Positions 45,116 through 64,000 of a DNA stretch of 64,000 bases are shown piece after piece (the first letter of the stretch is position 1; every line of letters begins with the position of its first letter). The stretch covers positions 64,127 to 128,126 of the forward strand of contig CAIOPG010000008.1 in assembly GCA_903860135.1 (NCBI GenBank), read 5' to 3'. The stretch comes from Candidatus Omnitrophota bacterium. GTDB lineage: Bacteria > Omnitrophota > Gorgyraeia > Zapsychrales > Fredricksoniimonadaceae. The notes under the pieces were generated by a model. The model saw nothing but the letters and a program-made list of their open reading frames with translations. It did not search any database and was not told the origin of the DNA. The position numbers and the translations under genes were made by a program.

Positions 45116-45157
45116 AAACGTAAGTTTTAACATTTAATCATGAAAGGAGAAAATAAC

Positions 45158-45271: not shown

Positions 45272-45297
45272 GACCTCTTATCGTGATGTGTTAAAGA

Positions 45298-45326: not shown

Positions 45327-45345
45327 GCACGGACACCCCCACTTG

Positions 45346-47722: not shown

Positions 47723-47723
47723 A

Positions 47724-48611
47724 TCACGACCTTATGATCCAGTACAACGCCATCGACGGCTGAACGTTGTTGTGCGCAAGGCCGCCCCCGGCTGCTGCTG
47801 TGACGCCCGCGCGCTGGGATGTGAGTAACGGGGAAGAACTCCCATCGTACCGACTGCCCGTCCAAGGTGATTCGTTATAGCCGTGCGTGTGCGCCGGCAT
47901 TTCGGCGATGGTCAACCGATGCGCTTCTTCACCGAAGATCCCGCCCAGCGAACGCCCCCGGGTATCGGTCATGACATTGGCCGCAGAGCCGCCCATATTA
48001 TCAAGCCCCACGACCGTGCGTCCGCGCAAATCAGGCAGATTGAACGTTGTTGACCCGTTGCCTGGACCATAGGTGGTGCCGATCACAGCGAACAATCCCG
48101 TATAATCCGCGCGCGCCACAGCGCGGCCGTCACAGATCAGCCAGCCTGAGGGCAGTGTCCCCGCAGGCCACGGCACGATCGTCCCGGCCGCTGCCAGTGA
48201 TTCCGTCCCCGGCGGTGTTACCTTGAGATTGACCCGTGTTCCGTTGATAACCGGCATCGGCAATAACACGGCTGTCGCTGACGCAAGGTCCGCCGGTAAA
48301 GTCGTGGTCAAATTTAGAAGCGCCCCCGCCTTCTGAACTTCATAAAGGTTCCCAAAAGGATTCCTGGTGCTCCAGGCTGTGTCTAGGAATCCGGCCGTAC
48401 GCAAAGCATCAAGGCTGTCAGGCCATTGTTGTTTTTCGATATAATACGCGCGCGCAACCTCGGCGATCTGGGACATCTCCATCGCCGTCTTTCTGGCCGC
48501 TTCCAAGCGCACCCCGCGGACAAAATCAGGGACGACCGCGCCGGCCAGGATCATGGCCATGGCCAGGGCCAGCGACAATTCGATCAAGGTGAAACTCCGT
48601 CTACGGTGCAT
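47724..48611 (-). CDS. minor pilin with class-III prepilin N-terminus fused to a phage tail-collar (MdpB-like) domain; candidate pilus-tip adhesin
   Basis: RRRSFTLIELSLALAMAMIL prepilin leader/helix. The C-terminus carries the LICDGRAVARADYTGLFAVIGTTYG...FNLPDLRGR...AHTHGY tail-collar signature. Confidence 0.6.
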   Translation of the reverse strand: MHRRRSFTLIELSLALAMAMILAGAVVPDFVRGVRLEAARKTAMEMSQIAEVARAYYIEKQQWPDSLDALRTAGFLDTAWSTRNPFGNLYEVQKAGALLNLTTTLPADLASATAVLLPMPVINGTRVNLKVTPPGTESLAAAGTIVPWPAGTLPSGWLICDGRAVARADYTGLFAVIGTTYGPGNGSTTFNLPDLRGRTVVGLDNMGGSAANVMTDTRGRSLGGIFGEEAHRLTIAEMPAHTHGYNESPWTGSRYDGSSSPLLTSQRAGVTAAAGGGLAHNNVQPSMALYWIIRS

Positions 48612-49050
48612 GCTTATTCCTTTGTTGGTATAATAACCGCGCCGCTTGGCCATGATCCTTTCCAATCGACAGACGGATCAGGTCCCAGGAGCCCCTGGAC
48701 TGAACCACAAACCCGTATCTCCCGGCGTCTGCTTTGGCCGTTCCGGCGGGAACCTCGGTTTCGATCCACAGGCGCCGCGCGTCTGAAGCAAAGGTGTACG
48801 CACGGCCCCAGCTATTATTTTCCGGCATCCTGGGAAGCACCCCATGGATCTCCTGCCACGCGGCAGGCCATACCCCCTGAAGGCTGGCGTATTGACGGCC
48901 AGCCTCAAGAAAAGCCGCCATATCATTGACCGTGCGCCGGGCACGGGCCATGGCCACCGGTTTACCGGCAGAACAGAGAACCCCGCCGGCCACGGCCACG
49001 AGCAAGACGCACGTCAACGACAATTCCAGCAAGCTGGCCGCGCGCTTCAT
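48601..49050 (-). CDS. minor (pseudo)pilin
   Basis: MKRAASLLELSLTCVLLVAVAGG is a prepilin-like N-terminal helix. Confidence 0.5.
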   Translation of the reverse strand: MKRAASLLELSLTCVLLVAVAGGVLCSAGKPVAMARARRTVNDMAAFLEAGRQYASLQGVWPAAWQEIHGVLPRMPENNSWGRAYTFASDARRLWIETEVPAGTAKADAGRYGFVVQSRGSWDLIRLSIGKDHGQAARLLYQQRNKHAP

Positions 49051-49496
49051 CAAAACGTGGCTTTCCATACCTTGCCTGCCTGGTCGTAATTAGTCGCTTC
49101 CGCTCGCGATAGAAACGTACTGGTCAATTCAGCACCCGCCGACGCAGGGACGCTGGCGAGCGCAATGTCCACCCGCGTATTATCCGCCGCGTTCGCCGCC
49201 ACGGTGTAATCACCGCCAAAGCTATTGGCAAGGGCAGGATCAAAGTTGTTGGGCAACAGGCCGGCAGTCTTGAGCGTCCCTACGCTAACGCCGGTATAGG
49301 TGAGATTCTGCCCCGAAAGATAATTCTGCGCAGCGATGCGCAAACTGTCGACCGCCTGCGCCTCCCGCTGAAGGCGGCATTTATTCATCATCCCGCCACC
49401 GGCGGCCACAACGCTCACAAGGACACCCATGAGCCCTATGGCTATCGCCAGTTCCATCAAAGAAAATCCCCGGTTATAACGTGCGTTCCTCTTCAT
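49050..49496 (-). CDS. major type IV pilin (class III signal peptide)
   Basis: MKRNARYNRGFSLMELAIAIGLMGVLVSVVA has a G|FSLMEL cleavage/methylation motif. The start was moved; the track ORF is 64 aa too long. Confidence 0.7.
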   Translation of the reverse strand: MKRNARYNRGFSLMELAIAIGLMGVLVSVVAAGGGMMNKCRLQREAQAVDSLRIAAQNYLSGQNLTYTGVSVGTLKTAGLLPNNFDPALANSFGGDYTVAANAADNTRVDIALASVPASAGAELTSTFLSRAEATNYDQAGKVWKATF

Positions 49497-49510
49497 CTTC
49501 CCCTCCTGGT

Positions 49511-50572
49511 TTACGGTTTCAACACACCAATGTGTGTCAGATTGGCATAAATAGGTTTCAAGAATGCAAGTGCCATGAGCATGACAAAGAACGCCGCTAC
49601 GCCCAGCAAGGCCGGCTGAAGTGTTGCCGCCAGCAGGCCGACGCGCGTTTCGAAGGAACGATAATAAAATTTGAACACACGCTCGCAATATTCATCGTAA
49701 TGCCCGGTTTCCTCGCCGAGCCTGACAGTTTCAACAACCAGCCGCGGGAAATATTTTCCAACAGCCAAAGCAGCTGAAAACGTATGCCCTCCGGCAAGGT
49801 ATTGCCGGCAGTGTTTTAATTCCATCCCGGTTCTGTTGACAGCCGCGGCCGCCGCCTCCGTGAGGGCGGTGTCGAGCGGAATACCACTGCGCAACAGCAC
49901 AAAGATATCGAAAAAACACAAGGCGATCTCGAGGTCCCGGTGCGCCCGGCCAACCAAAGGAAGTTCATTCAAAAAGGCATGCCATTGATCAGGATAGCGT
50001 GAGATCAATCCCATCATGGTCAGCCCCAGGACTGCGGTCCCACCAAACAACCATCCCCCCGCGTGCACGATGAAAGCGCTGAAAGTGATAAGGGCGCGTG
50101 TCAACCAATTATCCAAGGCCTCCGGCGGTAACAGCGGCGCCAGTTGGGGCACAACGGCCTGTGCCATATAAATGAGCACCACCAAAAGAAGCCCGATGAC
50201 GCTTGCCGGATAAATAACCGCCTGAAGGCATTTATCCTTTAAACGCGCGGACAGGTCAAAATGATCCGCCAGAAGCCCCATGACCAAAGGTAGATTCCCG
50301 GCATGCTCGCCAGCCTTAACCGCATTTAAAGCCAAACGAGGGAAAAGGCCTGTTTGCCCCATGGCCTGTGCCAACGGGCGGCCTGCGGCAAGTTCAAGGA
50401 GCATCACCGCACAACCCCGCGACAACCGTGGATCAAGGACAGCTTCTTTGAGTGAACCCAGGGCATGGTTAAGGGCAATGCCCGCCACCAGCATATTGGC
50501 AAGGTCCCTGAAGAAAAACGACAGACGTGCGGCCGGGACAGCCCTTGGCGGTAACAAGAACAACGCTGTCAT
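49511..50572 (-). CDS. type II secretion/type IV pilus platform protein (GspF/PilC/PilR family)
   Basis: 353 aa polytopic membrane protein with duplicated GspF-like cytoplasmic domains; directly downstream of the ATPase. Confidence 0.7.
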   Translation of the reverse strand: MTALFLLPPRAVPAARLSFFFRDLANMLVAGIALNHALGSLKEAVLDPRLSRGCAVMLLELAAGRPLAQAMGQTGLFPRLALNAVKAGEHAGNLPLVMGLLADHFDLSARLKDKCLQAVIYPASVIGLLLVVLIYMAQAVVPQLAPLLPPEALDNWLTRALITFSAFIVHAGGWLFGGTAVLGLTMMGLISRYPDQWHAFLNELPLVGRAHRDLEIALCFFDIFVLLRSGIPLDTALTEAAAAAVNRTGMELKHCRQYLAGGHTFSAALAVGKYFPRLVVETVRLGEETGHYDEYCERVFKFYYRSFETRVGLLAATLQPALLGVAAFFVMLMALAFLKPIYANLTHIGVLKP

Positions 50573-52197
50573 CGCACCACCCGCGCAGCCTCTTCGGGCG
50601 CGATGACCCCTTCGCGCACAAGCCGGCAGGCATCGGCGTGCATGGTGATCACGCCGGGCCTGGCCCTGACTTTCAAGAAGATCTCGTTGACCAGCCCCTG
50701 CTCGATCATGAAACGTATTTCATCATCGATGAACAAGGTTTCCGCCACCACGGTCCGCCCCCGATAACCGTCAAAACACCAGGGGCATCCCCGCGGATCC
50801 GCCCGATGAATGATCTGCCCCGGCCCGTTGACAAAAGCCTGTTCCGCCTCGCCGAGGAGCAGCGGCGTCACAAATTCCTCGATCCGGCAATGCGGACAAA
50901 GCTTGCGCACCAGCCGCTGGGCGACAACACACTTCAGGGTGCTGGCGATATAACTGTTATCCACTCCCAGGTCACGCAGGCGCAAGATGGCACTTACGGC
51001 ATCACGGGTATGCAGTGTTGAAAAGACCTTGTGCCCCGTGATCGCCGCACGCACGGCTTCTTTGGCCGTCTTTTCATCGCGGATCTCGCCGATCAGGATG
51101 ATATCCGGGTCATGCCGCAGAAAGGCCCGTGCCAACTGATGGAAATCATGCCCTTTACGGATATCGACCGGCACCTGGGTCACCAGCGGCAATTTGATCT
51201 CAACCGGATCTTCCGCCGCCACAACCTTGATCCCGACAGCCTTGACATGATTGAGCATGGCATAAAGGCTGGTGGTCTTGCCACAACCGGTAGGCCCGGT
51301 CAAGAGCACGATACCGCCGGGGCTTTTAACCGCACGCTCAATGACACGGCAATGCCCCGGGGCATAACCCAGGCTTTCCAGGGGCACGGCCGAGCGTGTT
51401 TTATCGAGAAGCCTCAGTACGAGCGAGGCCCCGTTGACCGACGGTATGTGCGAAAGCCGGATATCCATCCGGCGGTTGCCGCACACATGATCAAAGCGCG
51501 CGTCATGCAGTTTCATGAAATCGCCCGCGCTGATCTCGGCACGATTAAAGAATATGTTCACGATCCGTGCATGATCCCCGCGCGCGAAAGAACGGTGAAA
51601 GCGCAGGACCCCGTCGAGACGCAAGCGCACTTCGACCGAGTCTCCCGAAGGTTCGATGTGGATATCCGTTGCGCCCAGATCGATCGCTTCTTCCAGAAGG
51701 CTGTCCGCGGCATCCTGGACACCGCGTGTGCCGGCCTCAACAGCCCCTTGCTGCGCCTTCACGAAATGGGCCGCCCCCGCCGCAATGGTATCGCTATTGC
51801 CAATAAAGAACCGCACCTCCGAACCGAACACCGACACCACCTGATCCGTTGCCCGGGTATCATACGGGTCCGCAAGGACAAAAACGGTCCCCGCCGTATC
51901 GGTGCAAGGTAAAACCAGATGCTCCTGCATGAAAGCCCCGCCCAACCGGCTCGCCGCCGCTTGATCGAGGCACGCCGCACCTTCATAAACCGGCCAGCCT
52001 GATTGCTCGGACAATCCGGCCATCAGGTCTTCCTCACGCACAAGCGCATACTGACGCAAGATGTTCCCGAGGCGTTCGCGCCCCGCTGAAGACGCCTGCA
52101 CCCCAAGGCCCAACGCCACATCGCCCGACGTCAGGGCGCCCCGCCTTACCAGCAATGCTCCCAAGGGTTCGGGTTTCATCCGTCGTGCCGTTATCAT
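50569..52197 (-). CDS. type II/IV secretion system ATPase (GspE/PilB/PilQ-R64 family)
   Basis: Walker A LLTGPTGCGKTTSLYAML, a tetracysteine motif (CPHC...CPWC), and a GspE N-domain. Confidence 0.85.
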   Translation of the reverse strand: MITARRMKPEPLGALLVRRGALTSGDVALGLGVQASSAGRERLGNILRQYALVREEDLMAGLSEQSGWPVYEGAACLDQAAASRLGGAFMQEHLVLPCTDTAGTVFVLADPYDTRATDQVVSVFGSEVRFFIGNSDTIAAGAAHFVKAQQGAVEAGTRGVQDAADSLLEEAIDLGATDIHIEPSGDSVEVRLRLDGVLRFHRSFARGDHARIVNIFFNRAEISAGDFMKLHDARFDHVCGNRRMDIRLSHIPSVNGASLVLRLLDKTRSAVPLESLGYAPGHCRVIERAVKSPGGIVLLTGPTGCGKTTSLYAMLNHVKAVGIKVVAAEDPVEIKLPLVTQVPVDIRKGHDFHQLARAFLRHDPDIILIGEIRDEKTAKEAVRAAITGHKVFSTLHTRDAVSAILRLRDLGVDNSYIASTLKCVVAQRLVRKLCPHCRIEEFVTPLLLGEAEQAFVNGPGQIIHRADPRGCPWCFDGYRGRTVVAETLFIDDEIRFMIEQGLVNEIFLKVRARPGVITMHADACRLVREGVIAPEEAARVVR

Positions 52198-52655
52198 CGG
52201 ACCTCCAGCAAGCTTTCATGCCCGTCTTGCGTCACCATGGTGATCTCCGTCGCGGATATTTTCTTGATGATCCTGTCCGCGCAACGATCGCCTTCTTGCC
52301 AACGCTTGAGCACGCCGTCCACATCCACCACCGCTTCCTTGCGCGTCCCGGTGATGGCTATATAACGCACATGAATATTGGGCTCCGTTCCGGCTTGTTC
52401 GTGCGGCTTTCGGGTTTCCCCGCCGCCTGAAAGCCCGGCGAGTTCGAGTGAAACTTTTTTGCGCTCAAGTTCAAGCTTCAAGCGCTCCACATCCAGATGC
52501 AGTAACTGCAGTTCTTCCTCCCTGGCGCGCTCCGTGTCAACACGCCCCCGCATCTTTTCGAGCGTTGCCGTCCCGTCGTCAACAGCCGGTCCGGCCGCCA
52601 GTGCCGCGCTGGCGAACATGAAGATCAAGCAAATGCTCCCCACCTGTTTTTTCAT
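52194..52655 (-). CDS. pilus assembly protein, PilP-like periplasmic beta-domain protein
   Basis: Signal peptide MKKQVGSICLIFMFASAALA, a coiled-coil, and a C-terminal beta domain. Confidence 0.45.
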   Translation of the reverse strand: MKKQVGSICLIFMFASAALAAGPAVDDGTATLEKMRGRVDTERAREEELQLLHLDVERLKLELERKKVSLELAGLSGGGETRKPHEQAGTEPNIHVRYIAITGTRKEAVVDVDGVLKRWQEGDRCADRIIKKISATEITMVTQDGHESLLEVR

Positions 52656-53161
52656 GATGCCCCCTCCTGAAGTCCAACAATAATAACTTCCATCTCGAGC
52701 GTATCTTTTGTTCCCTTTATACGACGGATCACCGCCGTCCCCTTCTCTTCTATCCCTGAGAAAGCCCTCAGCATCGAAAAGAAGGCACTCCGGCTCTGTA
52801 GCCCCGTGCAATGCACATTTAGCGGCAGTTGCTGCACCCCCGCCCAGGGAGAAGCTTCCACCGCGCGGCGCATATCCCCTTGAACCATGCCCGGGACGAT
52901 CACCGTGCAGGCCGTATGCTCCGAGCGCCCGATTACATAAATGTCATTGATAAACCCGGCGTACGCCTCTTTAAAAATATCTTTCGGGGGTGTGCGCTCC
53001 AGCACGGCACAAGCTTTAAGCTCCTCGTTCAGACGGCGTGTCTCGTGCAGCGTTTGGGCCAGTGCCACGTTCTTTCTGGCCGCACGATCCCGAGCGGCAT
53101 AGCCTGTCACTAAGCCCGCAACCAGCAACAGGCTTCCGGCAAAGATCACCAGCAGCCTCAT
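52652..53161 (-). CDS. pilus assembly protein, PilO-like (TM + periplasmic domain)
   Basis: N-terminal TM MRLLVIFAGSLLLVAGLVTGY; ATGA overlaps on both sides. Confidence 0.45.
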   Translation of the reverse strand: MRLLVIFAGSLLLVAGLVTGYAARDRAARKNVALAQTLHETRRLNEELKACAVLERTPPKDIFKEAYAGFINDIYVIGRSEHTACTVIVPGMVQGDMRRAVEASPWAGVQQLPLNVHCTGLQSRSAFFSMLRAFSGIEEKGTAVIRRIKGTKDTLEMEVIIVGLQEGAS

Positions 53162-54231
53162 GGTGCTCTCCTTTCTTCGGCCGGGCAGGTAGAAAATACA
53201 GCACGGATCTTCAACCCCGGCTTATCCTCTATCACAATAGCCTCGCTGACAGCTTCCGTAAAAAGCCCATGGCCTGAAAAAGGGAAAACCTGTTTTTGTT
53301 CAAACACAAGCTCACCTGTGAAGATCCACCCGTCGCTCTGCCCGCGTTCAAACGTAACTGAACTGACCCGGCTCTCCAAAGGCAAGCCCTCCATAAACTG
53401 ACGGGACACATCAAAAAAATCAACGCGCGGCCATTGCCTGAGGCGCGCCTGATAGGTCACGATCGACACCTCTTTCAAGGCCGGCACACCACCGGCTCTT
53501 TGATCAGTAGCCTCCTGTGCCGCCGTGTCAACCGCCTGTTCAGACATGACCGCGCTCCAGCCATACCCGATACCGGCCAAGGCCATCAGCAACGCCATCG
53601 CCCCTGCACCCAACAAGCCCCGCCGGTCTGCCTGCCGCTGCCTTGCGGCCGCATCTTCCGGTGCCATCAAATGCACCGCGAACCTGACCGTACCCAACAC
53701 CTCAAAAGCCGGGAATAATGTTTCAAAGAAAACTACATTTTCTTTATCTTCCGCGCTCAACACCTCGATCACGGCGGCGTCATTGCCCAGCAAGCAGCAG
53801 GCCGCCGTCGGCAGCCCTTCGATCAAATTCTTGCGGGAACGCCGCACTTCCTCGGCGATCCGCTCCGCGTTCTGTGGCAGGAGCACCCGTGTTTCCACGG
53901 CCTCACGCGTGTTATAGGCCGTGAGCAAATACCTGTCGCCGATGTTGTCAATCACGATCATGGGCTGTTCGGCCGGGACCAAATTCTGCCCCCAAAGATA
54001 AGCCCGCAACGCCAGGCTGTACGGCACAAATGTCCTGATCCCGCCGCGCGGGAAAGCCCGGCTGATACGCCGGATCATGGCCGGCTGATCCTCCGTCGAC
54101 AGCACCAGCAGGACATGCGCCTCCTTATCTGCAACATGCGCAGAAGCCATAAAATCATCAACCGTCATGCAGGTCGGGTCATCCCCGCAGGCAAAGTAAA
54201 CATTCCCGTTCTGAAAAAGATAGCGTCCCAT
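53158..54231 (-). CDS. pilus assembly protein, GspL/PilM-PilN-like (cytoplasmic domain + TM + periplasmic domain)
   Basis: 357 aa with a central TM GLLGAGAMALLMALAGIGYGW. It follows the secretin, in the position of R64 PilO. Confidence 0.45.
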   Translation of the reverse strand: MGRYLFQNGNVYFACGDDPTCMTVDDFMASAHVADKEAHVLLVLSTEDQPAMIRRISRAFPRGGIRTFVPYSLALRAYLWGQNLVPAEQPMIVIDNIGDRYLLTAYNTREAVETRVLLPQNAERIAEEVRRSRKNLIEGLPTAACCLLGNDAAVIEVLSAEDKENVVFFETLFPAFEVLGTVRFAVHLMAPEDAAARQRQADRRGLLGAGAMALLMALAGIGYGWSAVMSEQAVDTAAQEATDQRAGGVPALKEVSIVTYQARLRQWPRVDFFDVSRQFMEGLPLESRVSSVTFERGQSDGWIFTGELVFEQKQVFPFSGHGLFTEAVSEAIVIEDKPGLKIRAVFSTCPAEERRAP

Positions 54232-54233
54232 AT

Positions 54234-55814
54234 TTAACCTTGGTGCGGGGTCATGAAAATGACCAGTTCTGTCCGCCGGTTTCGGCGAACCTCATAGGAA
54301 AACAATCTGCCCAATACAGGCAGGCGGCACAGGAAAGGCACCCCCTGCTGTTCCTTCCGCTTGTCGCGCGTGATAAGCCCGCCGATGGCTACCGTCTGCC
54401 CGTCTTTCACCCGCACCTGCGTGGTCATGGTCTTGATGGACGTGTCGGGCGCCTCCAGCCGGCTCCCGCCGCCGAGCGTGATCGTGCGGATATCATCAAT
54501 GCTGGTCACGACCGGCGTCACCCCCAGGAACACATCCTCGCCGGCAATACTGCCGACGATCTGGAGCGTCACGCCGCCATGGACTTCATTCAAGGCCGCC
54601 GACGTGATCGTACCCCCGTTCTGTGTGGTTTCCACGTTACTGCTCTCCACATACGATCGGGTTTCCCCGACCTGAATACTGGCCACCGCGTTATTGAGCA
54701 TCATGAGGCGCGGCTGAGACACCACCTCGATCTGCCCGAATGATTCCAGCGCTTTTAAGACGGCCTTGATCCCCGATGCGGTATCACCCGCCCCGCTTCG
54801 GCCGGCGCTGGCCGCCAGGGTCATCACATTGCCGGTGGCCATATTCCCGGAGGCAAAGTTCGTCGACGCCCGCAGGCCTTTTAAACTGCCCCCGGCCATC
54901 AGGGCACCCCAATCGATCCCCAGCTTATGCTCCCTGGAAAGTTCCACCTCGACGACCTTGACATCCACCATGATCTGACGCGCCGCCCGGGCATTGATAT
55001 CCTTGAGAAAAGTTTCCAGCGTTTCCAGCCGTCGCGGCGTATCCGTGACCACGATCACACCGGCCGCCTTGTTAACCGAAACAAGCCCGTCCTTGGAAAC
55101 AAGATTCCTCACACCCGCTTCAACATCACTCCAGTAGGAAAGTGCCTCGGCCTTGTTGTGGATAACAACCCTGGCTCCCACGCGCACATGACTGCGCCCG
55201 GCGGTGCCCGCCCCTGCATTACCTTCCTCGCCGGCACTTGAACTTTCATTGGTCGTGGCTGTATCAAAAGCCTGCGCCACCGGTGGTAGGTCGATGCGGA
55301 AAGACTGCGTATCACGGGCCAGGATAACAAGCTCTCCCCCGTTGACCTTATACCCGTATTCGAGCGGAACCAGGATGGCCCTTAACGCGCGCGCCAGCGG
55401 GGCTTGGCTAATATTCAGCGTCAATTCAGTGTCCACGACACCCGGCCCCAGGACAACCTGCTTTCCGGCGGCTTCGGCGATGATCTTCAAAGCTTCAAAC
55501 AGTTTCACCTGCCCTGCCAGCGTGATCAGCCGCGGTGCTCCGCCTTTAAACACCACGGTGCCGGTGCCCGTTGCAACAGCCTGCACAGGCATGACCAGCG
55601 GCTGAGCCGGTGCCCTCACCCAGGCCCCAGGCCTTAGGATCACCAGCTCATCACGGGCAGGATAATAAACACCGTCAGTGATCCCCGCCGGGACCCGCAC
55701 CTCTGAAACCAGAGGCTCCACCCACTGGTCGCTGGCTTGCGTCGCTGCCGCCCAGCCGCCTGACAGGCACCACAACCATAACCCTGCCCACACAATATTG
55801 GTCCGCATGATCAT
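54234..55814 (-). CDS. secretin (GspD/PilQ/PilN-R64 family)
   Basis: Signal peptide and STN-like N-domain. The secretin core IMVDVKVVEVELS...LGIDW and the C-terminal GVPFLCRLPVLGRLFSYEVRRNRRTELVIFMTP are present. Confidence 0.85.
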   Translation of the reverse strand: MIMRTNIVWAGLWLWCLSGGWAAATQASDQWVEPLVSEVRVPAGITDGVYYPARDELVILRPGAWVRAPAQPLVMPVQAVATGTGTVVFKGGAPRLITLAGQVKLFEALKIIAEAAGKQVVLGPGVVDTELTLNISQAPLARALRAILVPLEYGYKVNGGELVILARDTQSFRIDLPPVAQAFDTATTNESSSAGEEGNAGAGTAGRSHVRVGARVVIHNKAEALSYWSDVEAGVRNLVSKDGLVSVNKAAGVIVVTDTPRRLETLETFLKDINARAARQIMVDVKVVEVELSREHKLGIDWGALMAGGSLKGLRASTNFASGNMATGNVMTLAASAGRSGAGDTASGIKAVLKALESFGQIEVVSQPRLMMLNNAVASIQVGETRSYVESSNVETTQNGGTITSAALNEVHGGVTLQIVGSIAGEDVFLGVTPVVTSIDDIRTITLGGGSRLEAPDTSIKTMTTQVRVKDGQTVAIGGLITRDKRKEQQGVPFLCRLPVLGRLFSYEVRRNRRTELVIFMTPHQG

Positions 55815-55843
55815 GCCCTCTCCTTGATGTTCTTCCGCATCCT

Positions 55844-58291
55844 TCAGCGCACACCGCCGGGATATTTTGCCGCACAAACCCTGAGGGCTTCCAATAGGTC
55901 ACCCCCGGCCTTTTCCTTTTCCGCATCTAATAGCGCATTGTCGCGCGGCTCTGACGTGGCCGCCCAATAAAGCAGAGGGTCAGGCACCAGCCGGATAACC
56001 CCTGTCGAAGAAGGCGTCATCACCAAAGCCTCGGCATACCGCCCTTTGACCGTGCGGACCGACCGCAGCAAACCTGCCGCCTCGTCGGCGAGAGACAATT
56101 CTCTTTTTAAATGTTCGATCAGCGCAACTTCCTGCTTCAAAAAGATCTTGTTGGCTGTATTGGCCAGGATCGCCAGCCCGCTCTTTTGTTGCAGGAAGTC
56201 AGCAACCTCCTGGGTAACCGCCACTGCCGCACAGCGGTATTTGCGGAATGTCTTGAAGGCATTGGCAATAAAATCACCGGTGCTGGCGAGCTTTAATAAC
56301 TGCCACGCTTCATCGATCAGCATGAACTTCCTCTTGCCGCGGATGCGCGGATCACCCACAAACTGCGTCACAAAGAACATGATATTAAGGAGCACCACCA
56401 GCTGAAGGTCCGGGTAAGCACTCAGATTCGCCAGTTCAAACACCGTGAAACGGCTGTTCACTGTAAACTGATTCTGCCCGTCGAAGAATTTCCCGTACGG
56501 CCCTTTCCGGGTGAACGGTGCCAGCCTGAGCGCCAAACGAGGCCCCATTGCACTCACATCCTCGAGCGTCGCGTTGTTCAACACGCCGGCGACATCGGTC
56601 AATGTCACCTCACGGCCTTTCACCGTCCTGTACGCTTCAAGCACTGCCTGCTGGAGAAAGCCTTTCTCCTCGCGCGTCAGGCGGTCGCGTTCATCGCCGC
56701 CCGAAGCCATGAAACCCAGCACTTCGACAAGGAAAGCCAGATTTTCGCTGTCAGGAGCACACAGGAACGGATTGATCGTCAGCGGCGCCCGCAGGTCAAA
56801 ATCAAGGTACTGCCCGCCGAGGATGGCGCAGGTCTTGCGGTAAGAATGCCCTTTGTCGAGCACAAAGAAATGCGCGCCCAAACGGTAATTCTGATAAATA
56901 AAATCATTGATCAGGAATGACTTCCCGGCCCCCGAAGCCCCGATCACCAGCCCGTGAGGATTTGTTTCCGAATCAAAAAGATCCAGCCATACCGGCTCGC
57001 CCCGGCGGTTCATGTAAAGCCCCGCCGGTGTGGCTGTACCGCGGCAGGCGCCGTAAAAGGGCAGCATATCCGCGAAATTATCTGAGAGAATGCGGCGTTC
57101 CCGGCGCACAAAACACTCGTTGCGGTGGTCGAAATTTAGCGGCAGGCATGTCAGGTAGATCGACGGAGCAATGATCTCTTCTTTCAAGCCTTCGGCCCCC
57201 ATCCGGTGCAGAGCGGCCAGCAGTGTGTCGCACACCCCTTCAAGGGCAGGCAAAGCCTCGCCCCACACCACGAGATGCCAGCGCGCCTGCACGATCACCT
57301 TGCCGCTCTTAAAGGTCTGCGTGATAAGCCCGCTCAGTTCCTCTTTCTTTTGCACCGCCTCCTCGCTCACATCACCCATCGACGACGTCCGCTGCATAAA
57401 CGCCAGGGCCTTCTGAAATTTGAGCCGCGACAGGGCCGACTGCTGATCGGGCACCGTGAAATTGACAACGACCATCATGTCCCTGTGACTGTCACATAAG
57501 CCTTCGCGGGTTGATAACATCCCCGCCCATGTCGCCGGCGGTAATTCCTTCAGGCTCAACACCCGGGTGTGATAACCGTCAAAGATAAAGCCGTTGCCAT
57601 GCACGTCCGGTGCCCCGTACAAAACCTGTTCTCTCAAAAAGTCTTGTCCCAGCCGTGGCGGCGGAATTCTGAGCGCACGGCGAGGGTTCAACAGCCGGTA
57701 AACAAGCGCACACAAACCCGCTCCGTCGATTTCAACCCACGGGATCCGCATGGCCTGCAGTTGGCTTTCGATGACGGCACAAAATCGAAGAAAATCACCG
57801 CGCACTTTGTCTTGCGTCCGGGCATCGTGCGCCGCGCCTTGAGACACCGGAAAAGACCGTACAGTCAAAAACAGCCGCATCCGCCTGGGGAACAGTTCTT
57901 CCCCGGCCTGCCGGAAAAACCCTTCCCGGCTGTCTTCCATATGCTGCACTTTCCCGTCGATGATCATCGCTGTGGCCTTATCCGCTCCGGCCGGCGTCAT
58001 GGCCTGGTACGGACCGGTCAGCGGCGTAATATCGCTGTCCGATACGAGGATGGCCTGCGCGCTGATCCCCGGTAACATACGCCCGACAAGCCCCCCGAGC
58101 ATATGCACAAATTCATCCAGCTGTGCCGCCCCTACAGCCTCGGATTCATAAAGGGATAGTTCCCACACGCGCCCGATACTGCCGTCCACATGAAGAAATA
58201 TCCCGCCAGCGTATTCCGCGTACGGCAAATGATCAACGAGCGATTTCCCTTCATCGAACAAAGCCTGTATCCCTGACACGGTCAACATCAC
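55844..58291 (-). CDS. traC: conjugative transfer ATPase TraC/VirB4 family
   Basis: 815 aa with Walker A VIGASGAGKSFLINDFI and a Walker B-like FMLIDEAW. Confidence 0.8.
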   Translation of the reverse strand: MMLTVSGIQALFDEGKSLVDHLPYAEYAGGIFLHVDGSIGRVWELSLYESEAVGAAQLDEFVHMLGGLVGRMLPGISAQAILVSDSDITPLTGPYQAMTPAGADKATAMIIDGKVQHMEDSREGFFRQAGEELFPRRMRLFLTVRSFPVSQGAAHDARTQDKVRGDFLRFCAVIESQLQAMRIPWVEIDGAGLCALVYRLLNPRRALRIPPPRLGQDFLREQVLYGAPDVHGNGFIFDGYHTRVLSLKELPPATWAGMLSTREGLCDSHRDMMVVVNFTVPDQQSALSRLKFQKALAFMQRTSSMGDVSEEAVQKKEELSGLITQTFKSGKVIVQARWHLVVWGEALPALEGVCDTLLAALHRMGAEGLKEEIIAPSIYLTCLPLNFDHRNECFVRRERRILSDNFADMLPFYGACRGTATPAGLYMNRRGEPVWLDLFDSETNPHGLVIGASGAGKSFLINDFIYQNYRLGAHFFVLDKGHSYRKTCAILGGQYLDFDLRAPLTINPFLCAPDSENLAFLVEVLGFMASGGDERDRLTREEKGFLQQAVLEAYRTVKGREVTLTDVAGVLNNATLEDVSAMGPRLALRLAPFTRKGPYGKFFDGQNQFTVNSRFTVFELANLSAYPDLQLVVLLNIMFFVTQFVGDPRIRGKRKFMLIDEAWQLLKLASTGDFIANAFKTFRKYRCAAVAVTQEVADFLQQKSGLAILANTANKIFLKQEVALIEHLKRELSLADEAAGLLRSVRTVKGRYAEALVMTPSSTGVIRLVPDPLLYWAATSEPRDNALLDAEKEKAGGDLLEALRVCAAKYPGGVR

Positions 58292-58680
58292 GGCTCCTTT
58301 ACCGGTAAGACCGGAACGATCGCTCGTCCGTCGGTGCTTTCCCCCGCAGGCCGCTCGATATACCAGTGCGGCTCATCGACCATGAGAAACGTCCAATGCC
58401 CGGCGACCATGGCGTCGCGGCCGTGGCCGCTCACATGCGCCGGGATCCATACTTTCCGGATGCGCGGGGGTTCATAGATCGGCCAATACGGTCGCACCAC
58501 GCCAGCCTCAGGCAAAAGCTCCACCCTGCCCGTAGCACCACCCTCGGCAGTGCCGCACGAATGGTGATAGATCTGTGCCAGCGTACGCGGCGCCTCCCCT
58601 TGCGCCGGGACTGCCTGACGGCCCGCGCAACCGCTAATCAGCGTAACGCACAGGCATAACAGCACTCTTCTTGAGCCCAT
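58288..58680 (-). CDS. T4SS lipoprotein (TraV/TIGR03751-like position)
   Basis: Lipobox LCLCVTLISGC. It lies immediately upstream of traC, as TraV does in F-like systems. Confidence 0.5.
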   Translation of the reverse strand: MGSRRVLLCLCVTLISGCAGRQAVPAQGEAPRTLAQIYHHSCGTAEGGATGRVELLPEAGVVRPYWPIYEPPRIRKVWIPAHVSGHGRDAMVAGHWTFLMVDEPHWYIERPAGESTDGRAIVPVLPVKEP

Positions 58681-59806
58681 AAACCGCCGTCCCTTCGAGT
58701 ACAATGAAATAAACGCCGACCCCGGCCTCAACCTTGACCGCCGGGACAATATTCCCCAGCTGATCCTCGTAATACTTGGACATTTGCGCCGCGCTCTGCG
58801 CCAACCCCTGAAACCCGGCATTCTTTGTGCGGCTCCCGGTCACATTCCTTGTCATATGCCCGTTATCGCCCATGACCGTTGTTGTCTGGGCGTCGGCCAT
58901 GGCCTGCGCAGCCCCGCCGGTAAATCCGGTCATGAACGACATCGCCAACTGCCGGCCGGCGTTATAAACGACCTCGCCTTTCAAGCCCAACTGGCCGGAA
59001 ACATCTGTCAGATACCCGATATTCCCTTTGTGCTCAAAAGTCTCACCTTGCGGGAACACCGCCGACACCGTCGTGATCTGGACAAGCGCCCGTTCGCTCA
59101 CAAGATCCCCCGACGCCTTGCCTGCCGCCAGGGCACCTTCGAGCGGTATGCGCGACCCGTTGGGGCCATAAAAAGCTTCCTTAAGGCGGATCAAGACCGG
59201 CAAGGGATTGGCATTGCCTGACGGCGCATAAACCCCCGTCAGCAATGTCCCGCTCACAAAACTGCCGGCGGGCAAATACACCCGGTCTCTGTCGTTCTCG
59301 CGCGCAACAGGGGCCGCGATATTGATCACATCCATCTGATACCGCCGCATATCCGGCTGTTGCACCATAGCCCCGGCGGGGGATGACACCTCCGCCTTGT
59401 TGCTCACCGCCTCGGCCATGCGCCCGGCAAGGCTCGCGAAACTCTCGGACAACCGCCCCTGGCCCTTGGACAGCTCACTCACTTTCCCGGCAAGATCGTC
59501 GATCCGCCCCTGCAAAAGCTGATCTTTCTCTGCGGCAGAAAAATATTGCGCCTCAAGCCGCTGCACATACGCCTTCTTGTCAATGTCCTCCCCCAGGAAA
59601 TACCCGCCCTCGTCCTTCTTCACCTCTTGCGGCGACGCCAATGGCTTCACCGGGCCATCGCCGGGCACTGGTTCTTTGGGCAGAAACAGCCAGCACGCCG
59701 CGATCAGCAAGCCTCCGGCCGCGCACAGTGCCGTCAAGCGCCCGCGCGTGTCCAGTGCCTGAAATTTTTCCTGCCACGACCGGATCAACGCCTGAATATT
59801 ATTCAT
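58634..59806 (-). CDS. traB: TraB/VirB10 family protein
   Basis: N-terminal TM, a coiled-coil, and a C-terminal beta-barrel region (RVYLPAGSFVSGTLLTGV). Confidence 0.6.
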   Translation of the reverse strand: MNNIQALIRSWQEKFQALDTRGRLTALCAAGGLLIAACWLFLPKEPVPGDGPVKPLASPQEVKKDEGGYFLGEDIDKKAYVQRLEAQYFSAAEKDQLLQGRIDDLAGKVSELSKGQGRLSESFASLAGRMAEAVSNKAEVSSPAGAMVQQPDMRRYQMDVINIAAPVARENDRDRVYLPAGSFVSGTLLTGVYAPSGNANPLPVLIRLKEAFYGPNGSRIPLEGALAAGKASGDLVSERALVQITTVSAVFPQGETFEHKGNIGYLTDVSGQLGLKGEVVYNAGRQLAMSFMTGFTGGAAQAMADAQTTTVMGDNGHMTRNVTGSRTKNAGFQGLAQSAAQMSKYYEDQLGNIVPAVKVEAGVGVYFIVLEGTAVYGLKKSAVMPVRYAD

Positions 59807-60468
59807 CGCCGGACCACCATATAAATCCGCCCTTTCATCCGCGGGCCAAGCGTATCTTCCTCTGCCGCCACCGCCAGCAGGCCGGGATACGTTATCCGCT
59901 GCAACGGCAGTATGACCGGCGCATCCGTCACATTCTCAGCGGCGAGCACATACCCGGCGACCATGGGCCATTCATCGCTCCATAAAAGAACCAGCCTGAG
60001 CTGGGCATCCTCAAAAACCACCTGCCCGCCGTTGTGCCGCACAACCCCCTCCGGCTGACGCTCCTGCATCAAGGCCCGCATGGCCGCCATGACCGGATCC
60101 GTTCCCGCCGCTGGCCCTGCCGGCACGCGGCAATCCGCGATCGTCACCTTGTCATCGACCCCCTCACCAAAAACATACCTGACCCGGTGCGAACGCCCAT
60201 TGCTATCGAGGATGGTGATGCCCGCCGGCGCGGCTGTAAGCGGCGTCAGAAAAAGATGCCCCGCCGCGTGCTCCACCTTCACCGTTGCCGGATCACCCCA
60301 GCGCACAAGATCGGATATCCCATCCTCCATATAAATATCGACCATCTTGCCGACCTCCACCCGCACCGCTGTATCAGCCCCGGCGCAGATACGTTTTTCC
60401 GCCGCCGCGCCGCCCACCCCGCCGAGCAGGATCAGCCCTGCCACCAGACAATGCTCAACTCGGATCAT
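59803..60468 (-). CDS. traK: TraK/VirB9-like protein
   Basis: Signal peptide MIRVEHCLVAGLILLGGVGGAAA; placed between the TraE-like and TraB-like genes. The start was moved. Confidence 0.5.
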   Translation of the reverse strand: MIRVEHCLVAGLILLGGVGGAAAEKRICAGADTAVRVEVGKMVDIYMEDGISDLVRWGDPATVKVEHAAGHLFLTPLTAAPAGITILDSNGRSHRVRYVFGEGVDDKVTIADCRVPAGPAAGTDPVMAAMRALMQERQPEGVVRHNGGQVVFEDAQLRLVLLWSDEWPMVAGYVLAAENVTDAPVILPLQRITYPGLLAVAAEEDTLGPRMKGRIYMVVRR

Positions 60469-61078
60469 GGCTGGCCTTCTCTTTCCTGACATCCTCGACC
60501 GCAAGCCCGTAAGGATTGCGCGTCGTTGGCGTGATCCGCCGGACAGCCACCGTGAAACGCACGGCTTCACCTGACATTTCTTCCTTGCCCATGTAGATCC
60601 GGCGCTCGCCCTCAAAAACAACCGTAAAACCCACCGCTTGCGCCTCACACTGCGGCACGCCTTTCAGCGTGAATACCGACGACAATCTGTCGCGGGCGAT
60701 CTTTTCAAGCTCGGCCTTCAACCCCGCCTGGATCCTGGCCGTGAACCCGGGCATGACCAGGGTGAGCGCCCGCTGATAAACGCTTTCGGCGGTGTCGGGG
60801 GTATAATTCATCCAGTCCAGGATCCAGGCCGCCGTGAAACTGCTCACCGACGGCAAAGGCACCTGTCCCGGGTAGGATAGTCCCGCCGCGGGCATGGCCG
60901 GAATATAATGAATAGGCTTGGGGCGCAGGGCTGTCATCACCAGGGCCGCCGCCAGCACCACACTGACCAACCCCAAAACAAAAACAGCCCCTGCCAGCAC
61001 CGCGCGCTGTTGTTCCGCCTGGGCGTAGCGTTCAAAATACAGGGAACTTTTGGATCTCACCGCCTTCTCCTGACTCAT
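60455..61078 (-). CDS. traE: TraE/VirB8-like bitopic protein
   Basis: N-terminal TM VLAGAVFVLGLVSVVLAAALVM followed by a periplasmic domain; F-type gene order. Confidence 0.5.
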   Translation of the reverse strand: MSQEKAVRSKSSLYFERYAQAEQQRAVLAGAVFVLGLVSVVLAAALVMTALRPKPIHYIPAMPAAGLSYPGQVPLPSVSSFTAAWILDWMNYTPDTAESVYQRALTLVMPGFTARIQAGLKAELEKIARDRLSSVFTLKGVPQCEAQAVGFTVVFEGERRIYMGKEEMSGEAVRFTVAVRRITPTTRNPYGLAVEDVRKEKASHDPS

Positions 61079-61368
61079 GCCGCCTCCTTAAGGAATGCCC
61101 CGTAACGTTCTCCGTGCGCAGGTACCGGCGGCAAAAGTCCAGGCAGTGGTACGCCTGCCCGGTACAAGGCATGCGCCACATACCCTTCTGGCTTGCCCCG
61201 CTTGAAGGCGACGAGCGCCGGCCAGACCGCAAAGATCAGGATCAACGGGATCGCCGGAGAGATCAGGATCGCCGGCACCCCGAACAAGAGCATCAGCACC
61301 GCGATATCCTCCCCTTCGAGCCCGAGGATCAGCAAAGGCTTGTCAATGGTCTTGGGGCAATGCCGCAT
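61075..61368 (-). CDS. traL: TraL/VirB3-like small membrane protein
   Basis: 97 aa; LILGLEGEDIAVLMLLFGV resembles the TraL family. Confidence 0.5.
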   Translation of the reverse strand: MRHCPKTIDKPLLILGLEGEDIAVLMLLFGVPAILISPAIPLILIFAVWPALVAFKRGKPEGYVAHALYRAGVPLPGLLPPVPAHGERYGAFLKEAA

Positions 61369-61371
61369 CTG

Positions 61372-61686
61372 TCACCGCCCGAACACGTTTAAGATCTGCG
61401 GTAAAAAAACCAGGGCCAGCAAGGCGATCACACACCCCACCGCCGTGCCATAATCCCGGTTGATGATCTTCCATATACCGACGAGAAGCAGTACCAGCGC
61501 GATGATCTTGGCCACCGGCCCGGTCATGACCGTCACGATGAATTTCGACAGGTTGTCAAACTGTTGCTTTGTTTCATCTTCGATCCCGGATGCCTGGGCC
61601 CATGCCCGGGTGACCACCCCCATCACAACCACCGCCCCCGCACTCACGCGTAACAAGATCCGCTCCCCGACTTTGATATACCTCAT
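61372..61686 (-). CDS. conjugative pilin (TraA/VirB2/PFL_4701-like)
   Basis: About 104 aa: a signal-like segment plus two hydrophobic helices (KIIALVLLLVGIW, VGCVIALLALVFL). The track ORF is over-extended upstream in a Gly-rich out-of-context frame. Confidence 0.45.
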   Translation of the reverse strand: MRYIKVGERILLRVSAGAVVVMGVVTRAWAQASGIEDETKQQFDNLSKFIVTVMTGPVAKIIALVLLLVGIWKIINRDYGTAVGCVIALLALVFLPQILNVFGR

Positions 61687-62906
61687 GCCTGCCCCCTTGT
61701 TGAATGGCATCTGTTGAGAACCAAAAGAAATACCCCCAGCCCTGCCAGCGGCAACACCAAGACCGCGGTCGCCGTTATCACATTCACCACCGGCGACAAC
61801 CACAGCGCCGTACTCCCCGGCATCGCCGGCAACAGGAACAATACCCCCGCCGCCTTGGCCGCCAAGACCCACAAGACTGTCCAGCCTTTCACCGCCAGCA
61901 ACAACCCCAGCCATAACGCCAGTGCCCCCGCCGCACGGCATAAGAGTGCCGCCACCATAACCACAGGCAAGGCCACCCATAAACACAGCAGGCACAATCC
62001 TTGCGCCGCAGGATAAAACCGCACGATCACCCAGGCAAAGGCATCGAGCACGCCCGGTGCCCCCGCTTCAACCGCGACCTGCTGGGGTGCCCCATAAGCA
62101 AAGCGCGTATACGCTTGCGGTCTCAACCGCATTTCCTGTTCGAGCAAGGCCTGCACCACCGCATCCTTGTCGATCACCGCGCCGTAAAACCGCTCGAACA
62201 TCCGGTCAAAGATCTTTTCCTGGTTCACACAACCATACAACGCATCACGTAACACGCCCCAGCGTGCCCGGGCGTCTTCCTTATACACAGCCACCACCCG
62301 CTTATCCCCCGGCCACAGGCCCACGGTCTCAACATCCAATCCGCGCACGGCTTTCCAGTAATCCTGCTGATAGAACCTGGCCGCGGCATCGCTCAACGCA
62401 CGATCCGTGATCCCCCGCCCGATGATCGCGCGCGTGATCAGCGACACCTTGACCGCCAGGAACGGACTCGCCAGATACCCCCGCGCACCGCCGCCCTTCC
62501 CCATCCGGTCAACGACCGCCGCCACGCCCGTGACCAGCGCGTCAACGCCCCGGCTGACCGCAAAGAAAACCGGATTAACCACCACCGCGTCATATCCACC
62601 CTTCTTTATCAGTTCCGCCGCGCTCAAGCCCTGATACCCGTTGCGTTCCATGGCTGACACAGGCGCCACGACCGTTGCCCGCGGCTGAACCCCCAGGAAC
62701 CACACCCCAAAGAAGGCAACCACAAACACCATAACCCCCTTAAAATTTCCCCTCTCTAACCCCCTGGCAAGCCCGAGGATAAAACCCAGCGCAAAAATAA
62801 CTTTCCCGCCGAGCGTCTCTACAAAAATAAACCGCATCAACGCCTGCGCCTCGTGCAAGCCCATCATTTCAAATGCCGCATCGACCGGTGTGATCCCCAA
62901 GATCAT
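61683..62906 (-). CDS. polytopic membrane protein, first gene of T4SS/T4P operon (VirB6/TraG-N-like?, tentative)
   Basis: Multiple TM helices throughout. A GGAGAGAGGGG SD lies before the ATG at 62906. Confidence 0.4.
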   Translation of the reverse strand: MILGITPVDAAFEMMGLHEAQALMRFIFVETLGGKVIFALGFILGLARGLERGNFKGVMVFVVAFFGVWFLGVQPRATVVAPVSAMERNGYQGLSAAELIKKGGYDAVVVNPVFFAVSRGVDALVTGVAAVVDRMGKGGGARGYLASPFLAVKVSLITRAIIGRGITDRALSDAAARFYQQDYWKAVRGLDVETVGLWPGDKRVVAVYKEDARARWGVLRDALYGCVNQEKIFDRMFERFYGAVIDKDAVVQALLEQEMRLRPQAYTRFAYGAPQQVAVEAGAPGVLDAFAWVIVRFYPAAQGLCLLCLWVALPVVMVAALLCRAAGALALWLGLLLAVKGWTVLWVLAAKAAGVLFLLPAMPGSTALWLSPVVNVITATAVLVLPLAGLGVFLLVLNRCHSTRGQA

Positions 62907-62943
62907 AACCCCTCTCTCCACGTGTACGCCCATCAACCAGAGA

Positions 62944-62988: not shown

Positions 62989-63027
62989 GTTTTATTTTGA
63001 TATTACATCAAAACAAACCCCAAGGAA

Positions 63028-63050
63028 AAACCCCGCTCGTCGGGGATAAT
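63028..63050. terminator. bidirectional terminator hairpin
   Basis: AAAAA-CCCCG-ctcgt-CGGGG-ataATAAAAAA. Confidence 0.5.
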
Positions 63051-63065
63051 AAAAAAGTATATGTT

Positions 63066-63097
63066 TAAAAAGCCCGCGCGATGACCCGCACGGGCTT
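63066..63097 (-). terminator. rho-independent terminator of gene 63125..63964
   Basis: The minus strand reads GCCCGTGCGGG-tcat-CGCGCGGGC followed by TTTTT, a 9-bp stem with one G.U pair. Confidence 0.6.
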
Positions 63098-63124: not shown

Positions 63125-63964
63125 TTACGGCGTTATCAGGCCCTGCAACAGGCTGGCGCCGACAGGCTGTATGCTCAGGATCTCGGGCACAAGGCCGTCG
63201 ATCCGTATATTCTCCAGATTCTGCTGGCTCACCGGCAAAACCACCCCGGCCCCATCACGCTTGATCTGCATGTCAAGGTTCGACTGCGCAAAGTCGATAC
63301 CACCTTTTAAATCTTGACTATTATCATGGTTAGTCGTGAATTTGTTATGTTTATCCTGCTCAATAAGTTGTTTCGCTGTGTTACCTTTCAACATTCCCTC
63401 AATATAGGGCCTGACACGAAAATATTCATTCGAGTCTTTTTCAAAAATGGCCTTAAGTGCCACACCCACACGATAATTCAGACTATCTATCTGAACTGTT
63501 GGAAAATGATCCAAGAATGGCGTCATGCTGATAACATGCAACGCCATGGCGCGTCCATTCCCACGCTTAAAATCCTCTTCCATTGCTGTATTAAAACGAG
63601 CAAATATCCCATTTAAATAATTTTCAGTTATCGCGCTCGCCTGATCGACCTTAAAAGAAATAACAACAGGATTCATTTGAAAGTCTGGATTGCCTATAAC
63701 TTCTAAACTCTTAACATCCCAATTCATGGCATCAGCAAATATTTTCGTATAGTTTCTTACGTCGCCATTATCGACAAATGGCATCGATACCGTAATAACC
63801 TGTCGATCATTTGATGTTATTTTTATCCTTTTATAGATCGTTGCATTGATATTGTTAATATTCCTTTCATTTTCTAAGCTATGCTTTAGAATATAGATCG
63901 TTGCATTGATATTGTTAATATTCCTTTCATTTTCTAAGCTATGCTTTAGAATAAAAGCATGCAA
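63125..63964 (-). CDS. protein with AT-rich N-terminal region and conserved GC-rich C-terminal domain shared with the giant protein; possibly 5'-incomplete at window edge
   Basis: The C-terminus GGIDFAQSNLDMQIKRDGAGVV...GLVPEILSIQPVGASL aligns with the C-terminus of ORF 6239..10021. GC drops sharply at ~63310. It contains an in-frame 60-bp tandem duplication. Confidence 0.5.
   Translation of the reverse strand: MHAFILKHSLENERNINNINATIYILKHSLENERNINNINATIYKRIKITSNDRQVITVSMPFVDNGDVRNYTKIFADAMNWDVKSLEVIGNPDFQMNPVVISFKVDQASAITENYLNGIFARFNTAMEEDFKRGNGRAMALHVISMTPFLDHFPTVQIDSLNYRVGVALKAIFEKDSNEYFRVRPYIEGMLKGNTAKQLIEQDKHNKFTTNHDNSQDLKGGIDFAQSNLDMQIKRDGAGVVLPVSQQNLENIRIDGLVPEILSIQPVGASLLQGLITP
63834..63953. 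repeat. perfect 60-bp tandem duplication (2 copies) inside a CDS
   Basis: TAGATCGTTGCATTGATATTGTTAATATTCCTTTCATTTTCTAAGCTATGCTTTAGAATA x2, in-frame, which duplicates the peptide ILKHSLENERNINNINATIY. Confidence 0.9.
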
Positions 63965-64000
63965 AATGATGGGCGAAAGTTATCCAGAGAAGTTCAGGAA

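Follow-up and report, generated by a model that had tools for sequence, protein, structure and literature searches.

An IS630-family element with a doubled end and the probable truncation of a secreted-protein gene beside a secretion-type operon of an Omnitrophota bacterium

The closest described systems

The insertion sequences (ISs) of the IS630 family (IS630/Tc1/mariner), represented by ISY100 of Synechocystis and IS630 of Shigella sonnei, are the closest known relatives of the element considered in this report, which is like them in carrying one transposase with an HTH N-terminal and a DDE_3 C-terminal part, in its length of ~1.1 kb, in having inverted repeats with a TA on both sides and in being multi-copy, a property by which such elements collapse short-read assemblies. 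For ISY100, a bacterial member of the family, the targeting of TA dinucleotides and their duplication have been shown experimentally (PMC2170065). The present element is unlike its described relatives in its host, an uncultured member of the Omnitrophota, and in that its first 58 nt plus a TA are doubled here. Nested, self-targeted insertions provide a further comparison, since the order flank-TA-IS[1-58]-TA-IS[1-...] at this locus is like theirs, the second transposase gene and the transcript being presumed in our case. Outward-facing and hybrid promoters at IS ends are well known for many IS families, and the tip of this element resembles them in having a -35-like hexamer 17 nt from the tip and a -10-like hexamer that is completed by the tip together with the flank.

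The gene next to the element has its relatives in a family of Omnitrophota proteins built from a large N-domain, a variable middle and a short C-domain. It resembles the members of this family in a C-domain that matches with full score, in an AT-rich segment and in lying at the same locus as an intact member, and differs from them in having neither a signal peptide nor the N-domain of ~370 aa. For the family as a whole, the CTD of the T9SS and the XVIPCD of the T4SS effectors of Xanthomonadales offer an analogy, and one to be read as an analogy only, in the presence of a short conserved C-domain on unrelated cargo, in the many paralogues per genome and in the position of one copy adjoining a secretion-type operon. 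The Omnitrophota proteins are unlike these systems in their large N-domain and Sec-type leader, and 37 of 38 of their loci have no machine genes within 10 kb.

The locus lies near one end of a 64,000-nt stretch of DNA, referred to below as the window. We consider it highly probable (at roughly 0.85) that an IS630-family element inserted in a gene for a secreted protein and left a truncated 3' remnant of that gene beside a doubled IS end. The insertion would have taken place at a TA in the AT-rich variable region of a gene located directly upstream of a TraC/secretin machine operon. Taken as a whole, such a disruption by an IS is routine and represents an ordinary event.

The repeat unit and the IS630-family element

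Tandem Repeats Finder reports a direct repeat at 63832-63953 with a period of 60, 2.0 copies, 100% matches and a score of 244. An earlier note on this DNA had described an exact duplication of 2x60 bp and placed its start at 63834; the exactness stands, and the start given there belongs to the same repeat shifted in phase by 2 nt. The probability that an exact repeat of 60 nt arose by chance is negligible, and the view that such an exact repeat must be young can be retained. The repeat overlaps an ORF of 279 codons on the minus strand (63964->63125, TTG start), in which the 20-aa segment ILKHSLENERNINNINATIY occurs twice in frame. TTG 63964 is the earliest possible start of this ORF and the first ATG is its codon 61 (63784), where the gene call on record for the public contigs begins and yields a product of 219 aa; an exact look-up of the 279-aa product that would start at the TTG returned nothing on record. 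The suggestion that the ORF might continue past the edge of the window proved wrong, since an in-frame TAA at 63982-63984 prevents it from leaving the window.

When 44 bases of the repeat unit were used as an exact probe against the JGI metagenomes, one contig (L043) was matched. It contains the unit a single time, as the left terminus of an element of ~1.1 kb that has a TA on both sides. The element carries 28-nt terminal inverted repeats at 193-220 and 1263-1290 (93% complementary), with one 336-aa ORF (261-1271) between the arms. The product of this ORF scores 208.1 bits over residues 18-319 of 336 against the NCBIfam model NF033545, "IS630 family transposase", for which the equivalog cut-off is 100 bits, and it matches DDE_3 of Pfam at 3.8e-34 in addition to HTH_33, HTH_28 and HTH_23. 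Window positions 63891-64000 are 100% identical to positions 193-302 of L043, and positions 63832-63893 provide a second match, to nt 2-63 of the IS. The same organism is represented by a public MEGAHIT contig (L004), which has the identical duplication and on which the match to the IS extends 30 nt past the end of the window. Residues 1-24 of the transposase are matched there by tblastn with 100% identity; the first 14 codons (MQNDGRKLSREVQE, from ATG 63959) lie within the window, at 63959..64000 on the plus strand, and correspond to the beginning of the ORF at 261-1271 in L043.

An identical transposase (P0274) is present on 14 contigs, all of them <=1758 bp long. Among the 8 contigs for which DNA was available, there are at least 4 types of left flank and at least 7 types of right flank, and in all 8 a TA stands directly outside TAGATCG...CGATCTA, with variable bases beyond it. 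Both IS copies in the window likewise have a TA directly outside the left end TAGATCG, so that the left arm of the terminal inverted repeat occurs twice in the window, the element's own right end lying off the contig. The duplication of the target TA, as read from the flanking TAs of occupied sites only, agrees with the TA targeting and duplication of ISY100 (PMC2170065). Assignment of the element to the IS630 family is thus drawn from the transposase model, the DDE_3 and HTH domains, the inverted repeats, the insertion at TA and the multi-copy state.

With these boundaries the right-hand end of the window can be read base by base. Copy A occupies 63832..63891 on the plus strand and consists of a TA (63832-33) followed by nt 1-58 of the IS (63834-63891), with 100% identity to positions 194-253 of L043 and to copy B; it represents an isolated left end of the IS that includes the terminal inverted repeat. 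Copy B (63892..64000, plus strand, 100% identical to L043) consists of a TA (63892-93) and IS nt 1-107, which lead into the body of the element and include a further TA at IS nt 59-60 (63952-53). Judged by these sequence identities, the repeat unit is a TA plus nt 1-58 of an IS630-family element, and codons 1-44 of the 279-codon ORF, with both copies of ILKHSLENERNINNINATIY, are the IS end read in antisense. On the same comparison, the ORF is a chimaera in which only codons 45-279 are native. The start of the outward-reading frame, MHAFILKHSLENERNINNINATIY, is present in L043 as well, where it reads from the IS into unrelated DNA; the N-terminus of the ORF is a property of the IS and not of the gene. 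The earlier note had treated the 20-aa repeat as a segment of a protein and had emphasised that the duplication is in frame. Neither point survives, inasmuch as the repeat and everything to the right of it are insertion-sequence DNA read in antisense, and the period is simply 58 + 2, set by the position of a TA in the IS. Rather than a tandem duplication within a coding sequence, the unit is an antisense IS end, and the recorded gene call starts downstream of it.

A member of an Omnitrophota protein family and its surroundings

Typical members of the family to which the native codons belong consist of a signal peptide, the N-domain of ~370 aa, an AT-rich variable middle and a C-domain of ~50 aa with the consensus GGIDFAQSNLDMQIKRDG.G..LPVSQQNL.NI.IDGLVP.IL.I.P (also with.G.PLPVSQQNL), of the GGIDF...DGLVP type. 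Among 1.84 billion representatives, 4409 clusters (50% identity) were retrieved with a profile of the C-domain at E<=1e-3, and the domain was at the extreme C-terminus every time. The same position was found for it in 50 ORFs from 38 Omnitrophota loci (MAGs), and almost all of these ORFs are 800-3400 aa long and contain the N-domain, with a signal-peptide-like helix first. Neither Pfam nor NCBIfam has a model for the C-domain. Searches with the N-domain alone brought up at least 1439 proteins, essentially all of them designated "hypothetical protein, Candidatus Omnitrophota", and NUDIX, HAD and ankyrin domains are present in its match list. A structural model of the N-domain (pLDDT 76) had no significant match in the PDB by Foldseek; NheA, SmhB and MakE were rejected as fold matches (E 0.23-0.64, TM ~0.1). 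Among 40 full-length members the variable middle, or cargo, is mostly without a Pfam domain, and the domains encountered singly are Response_reg, AvrB_AvrC, cNMP_binding, HEAT_2 and COMMD1_N. Searches of the literature on secretion and effectors in Omnitrophota brought up no description of this N-domain/C-domain family. Papers on the giant genes of Omnitrophota do mention type II/IV-like secretion genes nearby, but not this architecture.

Three members of the family are located in the window: an intact gene at 6239-10021 (1260 aa), a broken copy at 22733-23983, in which the N-domain is cut at model position 228 and is followed by stops and then by the C-domain, and the remnant at 63125-63831. 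The C-domain copies other than that of the remnant fall at 6242-10087 and 22733-23104. In all three members, and at many other loci, the variable middle markedly exceeds the N-domain, the C-domain and the genome in AT content. A machine of the type encoded beside the remnant lies within 10 kb of family members in one of the 38 loci that were fetched, and linkage between the family and the machine is not general.

The native 3' remnant (63125..63831, minus strand, codons 45-279 plus the stop), as defined by the ORF, the family matches and synteny, is composed of two parts. The conserved C-terminal domain (63128..63292, minus strand) has a host-like GC content of 0.56 and is recognised by the C-domain HMM with 107 bits at ORF residues 225-273, which bears out the earlier description of a gene with a conserved C-domain. 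The remainder (63293..63831, minus strand), delimited by module matches and GC content, is the AT-rich variable or cargo part. The GC content over ~63200-64000 is 0.27-0.45, against values of 0.54 in the window overall and ~0.6 in the adjoining operon, and it returns to about 0.56-0.59 at the C-domain, from ~63292. The AT-richness of the ORF had been correctly noticed before; it is a trait of the family, to which the AT-rich tip of the IS is added. Pfam and NCBIfam searches with the whole ORF (63964->63125) gave only a sub-threshold match to Dit, which was treated as due to chance.

The ORF at 63125-63964 is devoid of the signal peptide and of the N-domain, as judged by the N-domain HMM, which does detect the domain at 6242-10087 and 23138-24046. 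No Shine-Dalgarno motif precedes either ATG 63784 or TTG 63964, and AGGAGG-like motifs are found at many genes of the window. From ATG 63784 the frame is open all the way back to the edge of the IS. In a search of 5.8 billion proteins the ORF had one close relative, P0001, which has another N-terminus and is 96% identical over the whole stretch from residue ~107 onwards, and 20 further proteins whose similarity to it is confined to the last ~50 residues. A helical module at residues 105-224 is common to P0001 (96%) and to a protein of locus L005 (60%), and only these two and P0056 share it with the ORF; in L005 this 120-aa module stands at the C-terminal end of a full-length member of 892 aa. 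Residues 45-104 are an orphan segment to which nothing was matched in these searches. The 234 native residues were modelled with AlphaFold2 at low confidence (pLDDT 60), and the model hints at a small alpha/beta unit, which would start before the ATG, followed by a helical bundle, the C-domain taking no clear form in the model.

The strongest evidence for remnant status, as far as gene order can indicate it, comes from locus L009, which has a TraC 76% identical to that of the window. There, an intact family member of 774 aa is flanked by a DHquinase gene on one side and by the same operon on the other; the genes of this operon occur in the order p417 homologue, pilin-like gene, TraE, TrbI, TraC and secretin. 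The contig that encodes P0001 has the same upstream synteny, namely PGI - MJ0043_C - DHquinase, then a 342-aa ORF that has no match in Pfam and then P0001. What lies at 63125-63831 is most probably the 3' end left over from a longer gene that an IS has interrupted, rather than the separately evolved, small and complete C-domain protein for which it could be taken. The missing 5' part of the gene is presumably located beyond the IS. All public contigs end within the IS, which places the 5' side of the gene outside the available sequence, and none of the 7 right-flank types of the element could be linked to the gene when translated in the expected frame. The native part would be a leaderless 3' remnant and is probably non-functional.

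Transcription of the remnant might nevertheless start at outward-facing promoter-like hexamers in the IS end. A TTAACA is located 17 nt from the tip of the IS, and the bases that follow the tip complete a -10-like hexamer with it: TTAACA-17-TATATT extends over the junction between copy B and copy A (63890..63918, minus strand, 10/12 consensus matches), and TTAACA-17-TATAAA over the junction between copy A and the flank (63830-63858, minus strand), the latter read directly from the sequence, both being consensus matches only. A scan of the region found 3 promoter-like sites where 3.2 were expected, without excess over shuffled sequences. To the extent that consensus matches can indicate it, the IS end could have outward promoter activity. 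Any influence on the machine operon downstream is unlikely because two terminators are predicted between it and the remnant. On the minus strand, downstream of the stop, one hairpin has its stem at 63072-63095 and a U-run at 63067-71, and a second has its stem at 63031-63045 and a U-run at 63026-30; both are GC-rich stem-loops followed by a U-run, as in intrinsic terminators, although a consensus scan listed only the second of them and the fold z-score of the 113-nt hairpin region is modest (-1.75). The separation of the remnant from the operon by two terminator-like hairpins (63026..63095, minus strand) had already been pointed out in the earlier note.

Origin of the doubled end and alternative readings of the locus

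The most likely origin of the doubled end, and the one that we favour at somewhat better than even odds, is a nested insertion, in which a second copy of the IS would have entered TA59-60 of the resident copy in the same orientation. Since nt 59-60 of the IS are TA, and since members of the IS630 family insert at TA and duplicate it, self-insertion would give exactly the observed repeat: the product would read flank-TA-IS[1-58]-TA-IS[1-58]-TA-IS[61...], with a period of 60 = 58 + 2. Over its whole length the structure would be IS[1-58]-TA-full IS-TA-IS[61-end], with two tandem transposase genes and a junction of ...CAACGATCTA-TA-AAAGCATGCAAAATG. Replication slippage or unequal exchange on a 2-nt TA microhomology, which would double the tip after the same insertion and leave a single IS copy, is an alternative that we regard as possible but rather unlikely. 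It would account for a repeat that is bordered by TA...TA and reaches 122 nt, and the 8 IS contigs examined, none of them from the sample of L004, do not contain the junction expected from nesting (the right end of the IS followed by TA-AAAGCATGC). On the other hand, the left edge of the duplication falls exactly on the boundary between the IS and the target-site duplication, and slippage has no reason to begin at the tip; the right edge falls on an internal TA, the obligatory target of the family (PMC2170065). That slippage should hit both edges by chance would be rare (by a rough estimate, one in tens to a hundred), and 2 nt of microhomology are weak support for a duplication of 60 nt. The two processes leave the same visible sequence and differ only beyond the end of the contig, in two as opposed to one transposase genes. 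That the assembler itself made the tandem copy at the boundary of a repeat is unlikely, in our estimation very much so, even though the feature lies <170 nt from a contig end and in multi-copy DNA. Such multi-copy DNA is where the public contigs break, and L004 (MEGAHIT, k=141) ends after 139-140 nt (k-1) of the IS sequence that it shares with other copies, which is where a contig is expected to stop when a unitig meets a real multi-copy repeat. A single 141-mer that begins in the unique flank spans the 60 nt of copy A and its junction with part of copy B, so that the tandem junction should occur in the reads. The window and L004 have the identical structure, although these two sequences are possibly not independent, and our judgement of the assembly is drawn from this k-mer geometry of the contigs.

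A different set of alternatives concerns the gene rather than the element. The interpretation offered in the earlier note, according to which the ORF encodes a genuine small C-domain protein with a recent in-frame duplication of 20 codons (by slippage or recombination), fits with a frame that is open from TTG 63964 and with a repeat length that is a multiple of three, and yet it is hardly credible: what is repeated is terminal DNA of an IS630-family element known from other places with other flanks, the TTG is located in the transposase gene, on its antisense strand, the ILKHSLENERNINNINATIY peptide is present in no homologue, the recorded gene call begins at ATG 63784, downstream of the repeat, and the start has no SD motif. 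The accompanying claim that the locus is changing is borne out, but through transposition and not through the evolution of a protein repeat. More deserving of attention, if still improbable, is a natively short gene of 219 aa that starts at ATG 63784 and has received the IS in its upstream spacer, possibly together with a promoter. Public gene callers do start at this ATG, the IS end contains outward promoter-like hexamers, and other short C-domain ORFs exist (P0001 with 205 aa and P0002 with 258 aa), which count against the reading as a remnant. Against a natively short gene stand the absence of a signal peptide, N-domain and SD motif, the full length of the syntenic gene in L009, the terminal position of the 120-aa module in the 892-aa protein of L005, the open frame between the ATG and the edge of the IS and, from the low-confidence AlphaFold2 model, a beta-hairpin that would run across the ATG.

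For annotation, the truncation of a longer gene by the IS means that a description of the ORF 63964->63125 as a "repeat-containing protein" is to be avoided and that its 44 N-terminal residues are to be discarded. The multi-copy IS also explains the break of the contig. The locus provides a clean candidate for a self-targeted (nested) IS630 insertion and points to an active IS630-family element in Omnitrophota that would have disrupted a copy of the N-domain/C-domain family beside a secretion-type operon.

It is this family, rather than the duplication, that seems to us worth a study of its own. One idea about it, which we regard as improbable, is that the AT-rich middles are swappable effector cargo, that the C-domain is a recognition tag for the adjacent hybrid TraC/TrbI/secretin/T2SS-ATPase machine and that leaderless 3' fragments persist as recombinational cassettes. 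If this were true, leaderless fragments like the present one, here supplied with outward promoters by the doubled IS end, would be kept as cassettes for cargo exchange and would not be dead remnants. A related proposal, in which the C-domain marks T4SS effectors and the AT-rich part is a foreign cassette, was no longer used to explain the duplication after the IS had been found. A 9-nt likeness to the tip of the IS (TAGATCGTT) is present near the start of L001 and L006 and is probably due to chance.

Architecture and cargo of the N-domain/C-domain family

The Omnitrophota protein family to which the remnant gene belongs is built from a signal peptide, a conserved N-domain of ~370 aa, an AT-rich hypervariable middle and an invariant C-domain of ~50 aa, and the GC content of its genes is 10-25 points lower in the middle segment and returns exactly at the C-domain. 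The family is very large and without annotation; its C-domain occurs in 4409 clusters (50% identity), and neither Pfam nor NCBIfam contains a model for the family. Several paralogues are present per genome, often in tandem, and members are located in the window at 6239-10021, 22733-23983 and 63125-63831, all on the (-) strand, as well as in loci L005-L042. In the variable middle, or "cargo", of the family proteins P0154-P0273 and of those in alignment A5, the domains found occasionally are AvrB_AvrC, NUDIX, HAD, ankyrin, HEAT, response-regulator receiver, cNMP-binding and COMMD1_N, and the majority of these segments exhibit no Pfam domain whatever. The domains found are of kinds typical for intracellular or effector proteins.

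An AlphaFold2 model of the N-domain (window 8822-10021), which is reasonably confident (pLDDT 76, pTM 0.74), predicts a fold of long helices and one long beta-hairpin. Foldseek detected no significant match to this model in the PDB; the top, non-significant matches were to the alpha-pore-forming toxins NheA, SmhB and MakE (E 0.2-0.6, TM ~0.1).

The machine operon and its counterpart in a related genome

The "machine" operon beside the remnant gene (~46800-62936, (-) strand) combines two kinds of parts. Its F-type T4SS-like parts are a TrbC/VirB2-like pilin, TraL, TraE, TrbI/TraB and a TraC/VirB4 ATPase (55844-58291, (-)). These are accompanied by a secretin, encoded at 54234-55877 (-), and by an ATPase of the T2SS/T4P type at 50569-52197 (-). 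The gene order is kept in locus L009 of the related MAG AM4_bin-704. There (L009 7880-12422) an undamaged family gene of 774 aa occupies the syntenic position and is separated from the operon by a 102-aa ORF that, to judge from its size and position, might specify a toxin-like product.

Broken family genes, contig ends and base composition

A second disrupted family member of the window (22733-24046, (-)) has an N-domain that is cut short at model position 228; behind it come stop codons, a brief run of AT-rich sequence and a C-domain that has diverged (28 bits). This gene showed no sign of an IS. The contigs that carry the genes for the short C-domain proteins P0001 and P0002 (among them L001-L003 and L006) likewise stop within 60-190 nt of them in several independent assemblies. 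It therefore seems that assemblies generally break at genes of this family, through repeats or strain variation. The similarity of TAGATCGTT, located ~50-140 nt from the contig start in L001 and L006, to the tip of the IS630-family element is probably due to chance. Further segments of the window with GC below 0.45 (window mean 0.54) are located at 601-1100, 3951-6240, 16951-18150, 24601-25050, 40001-40500 and 44801-45400.
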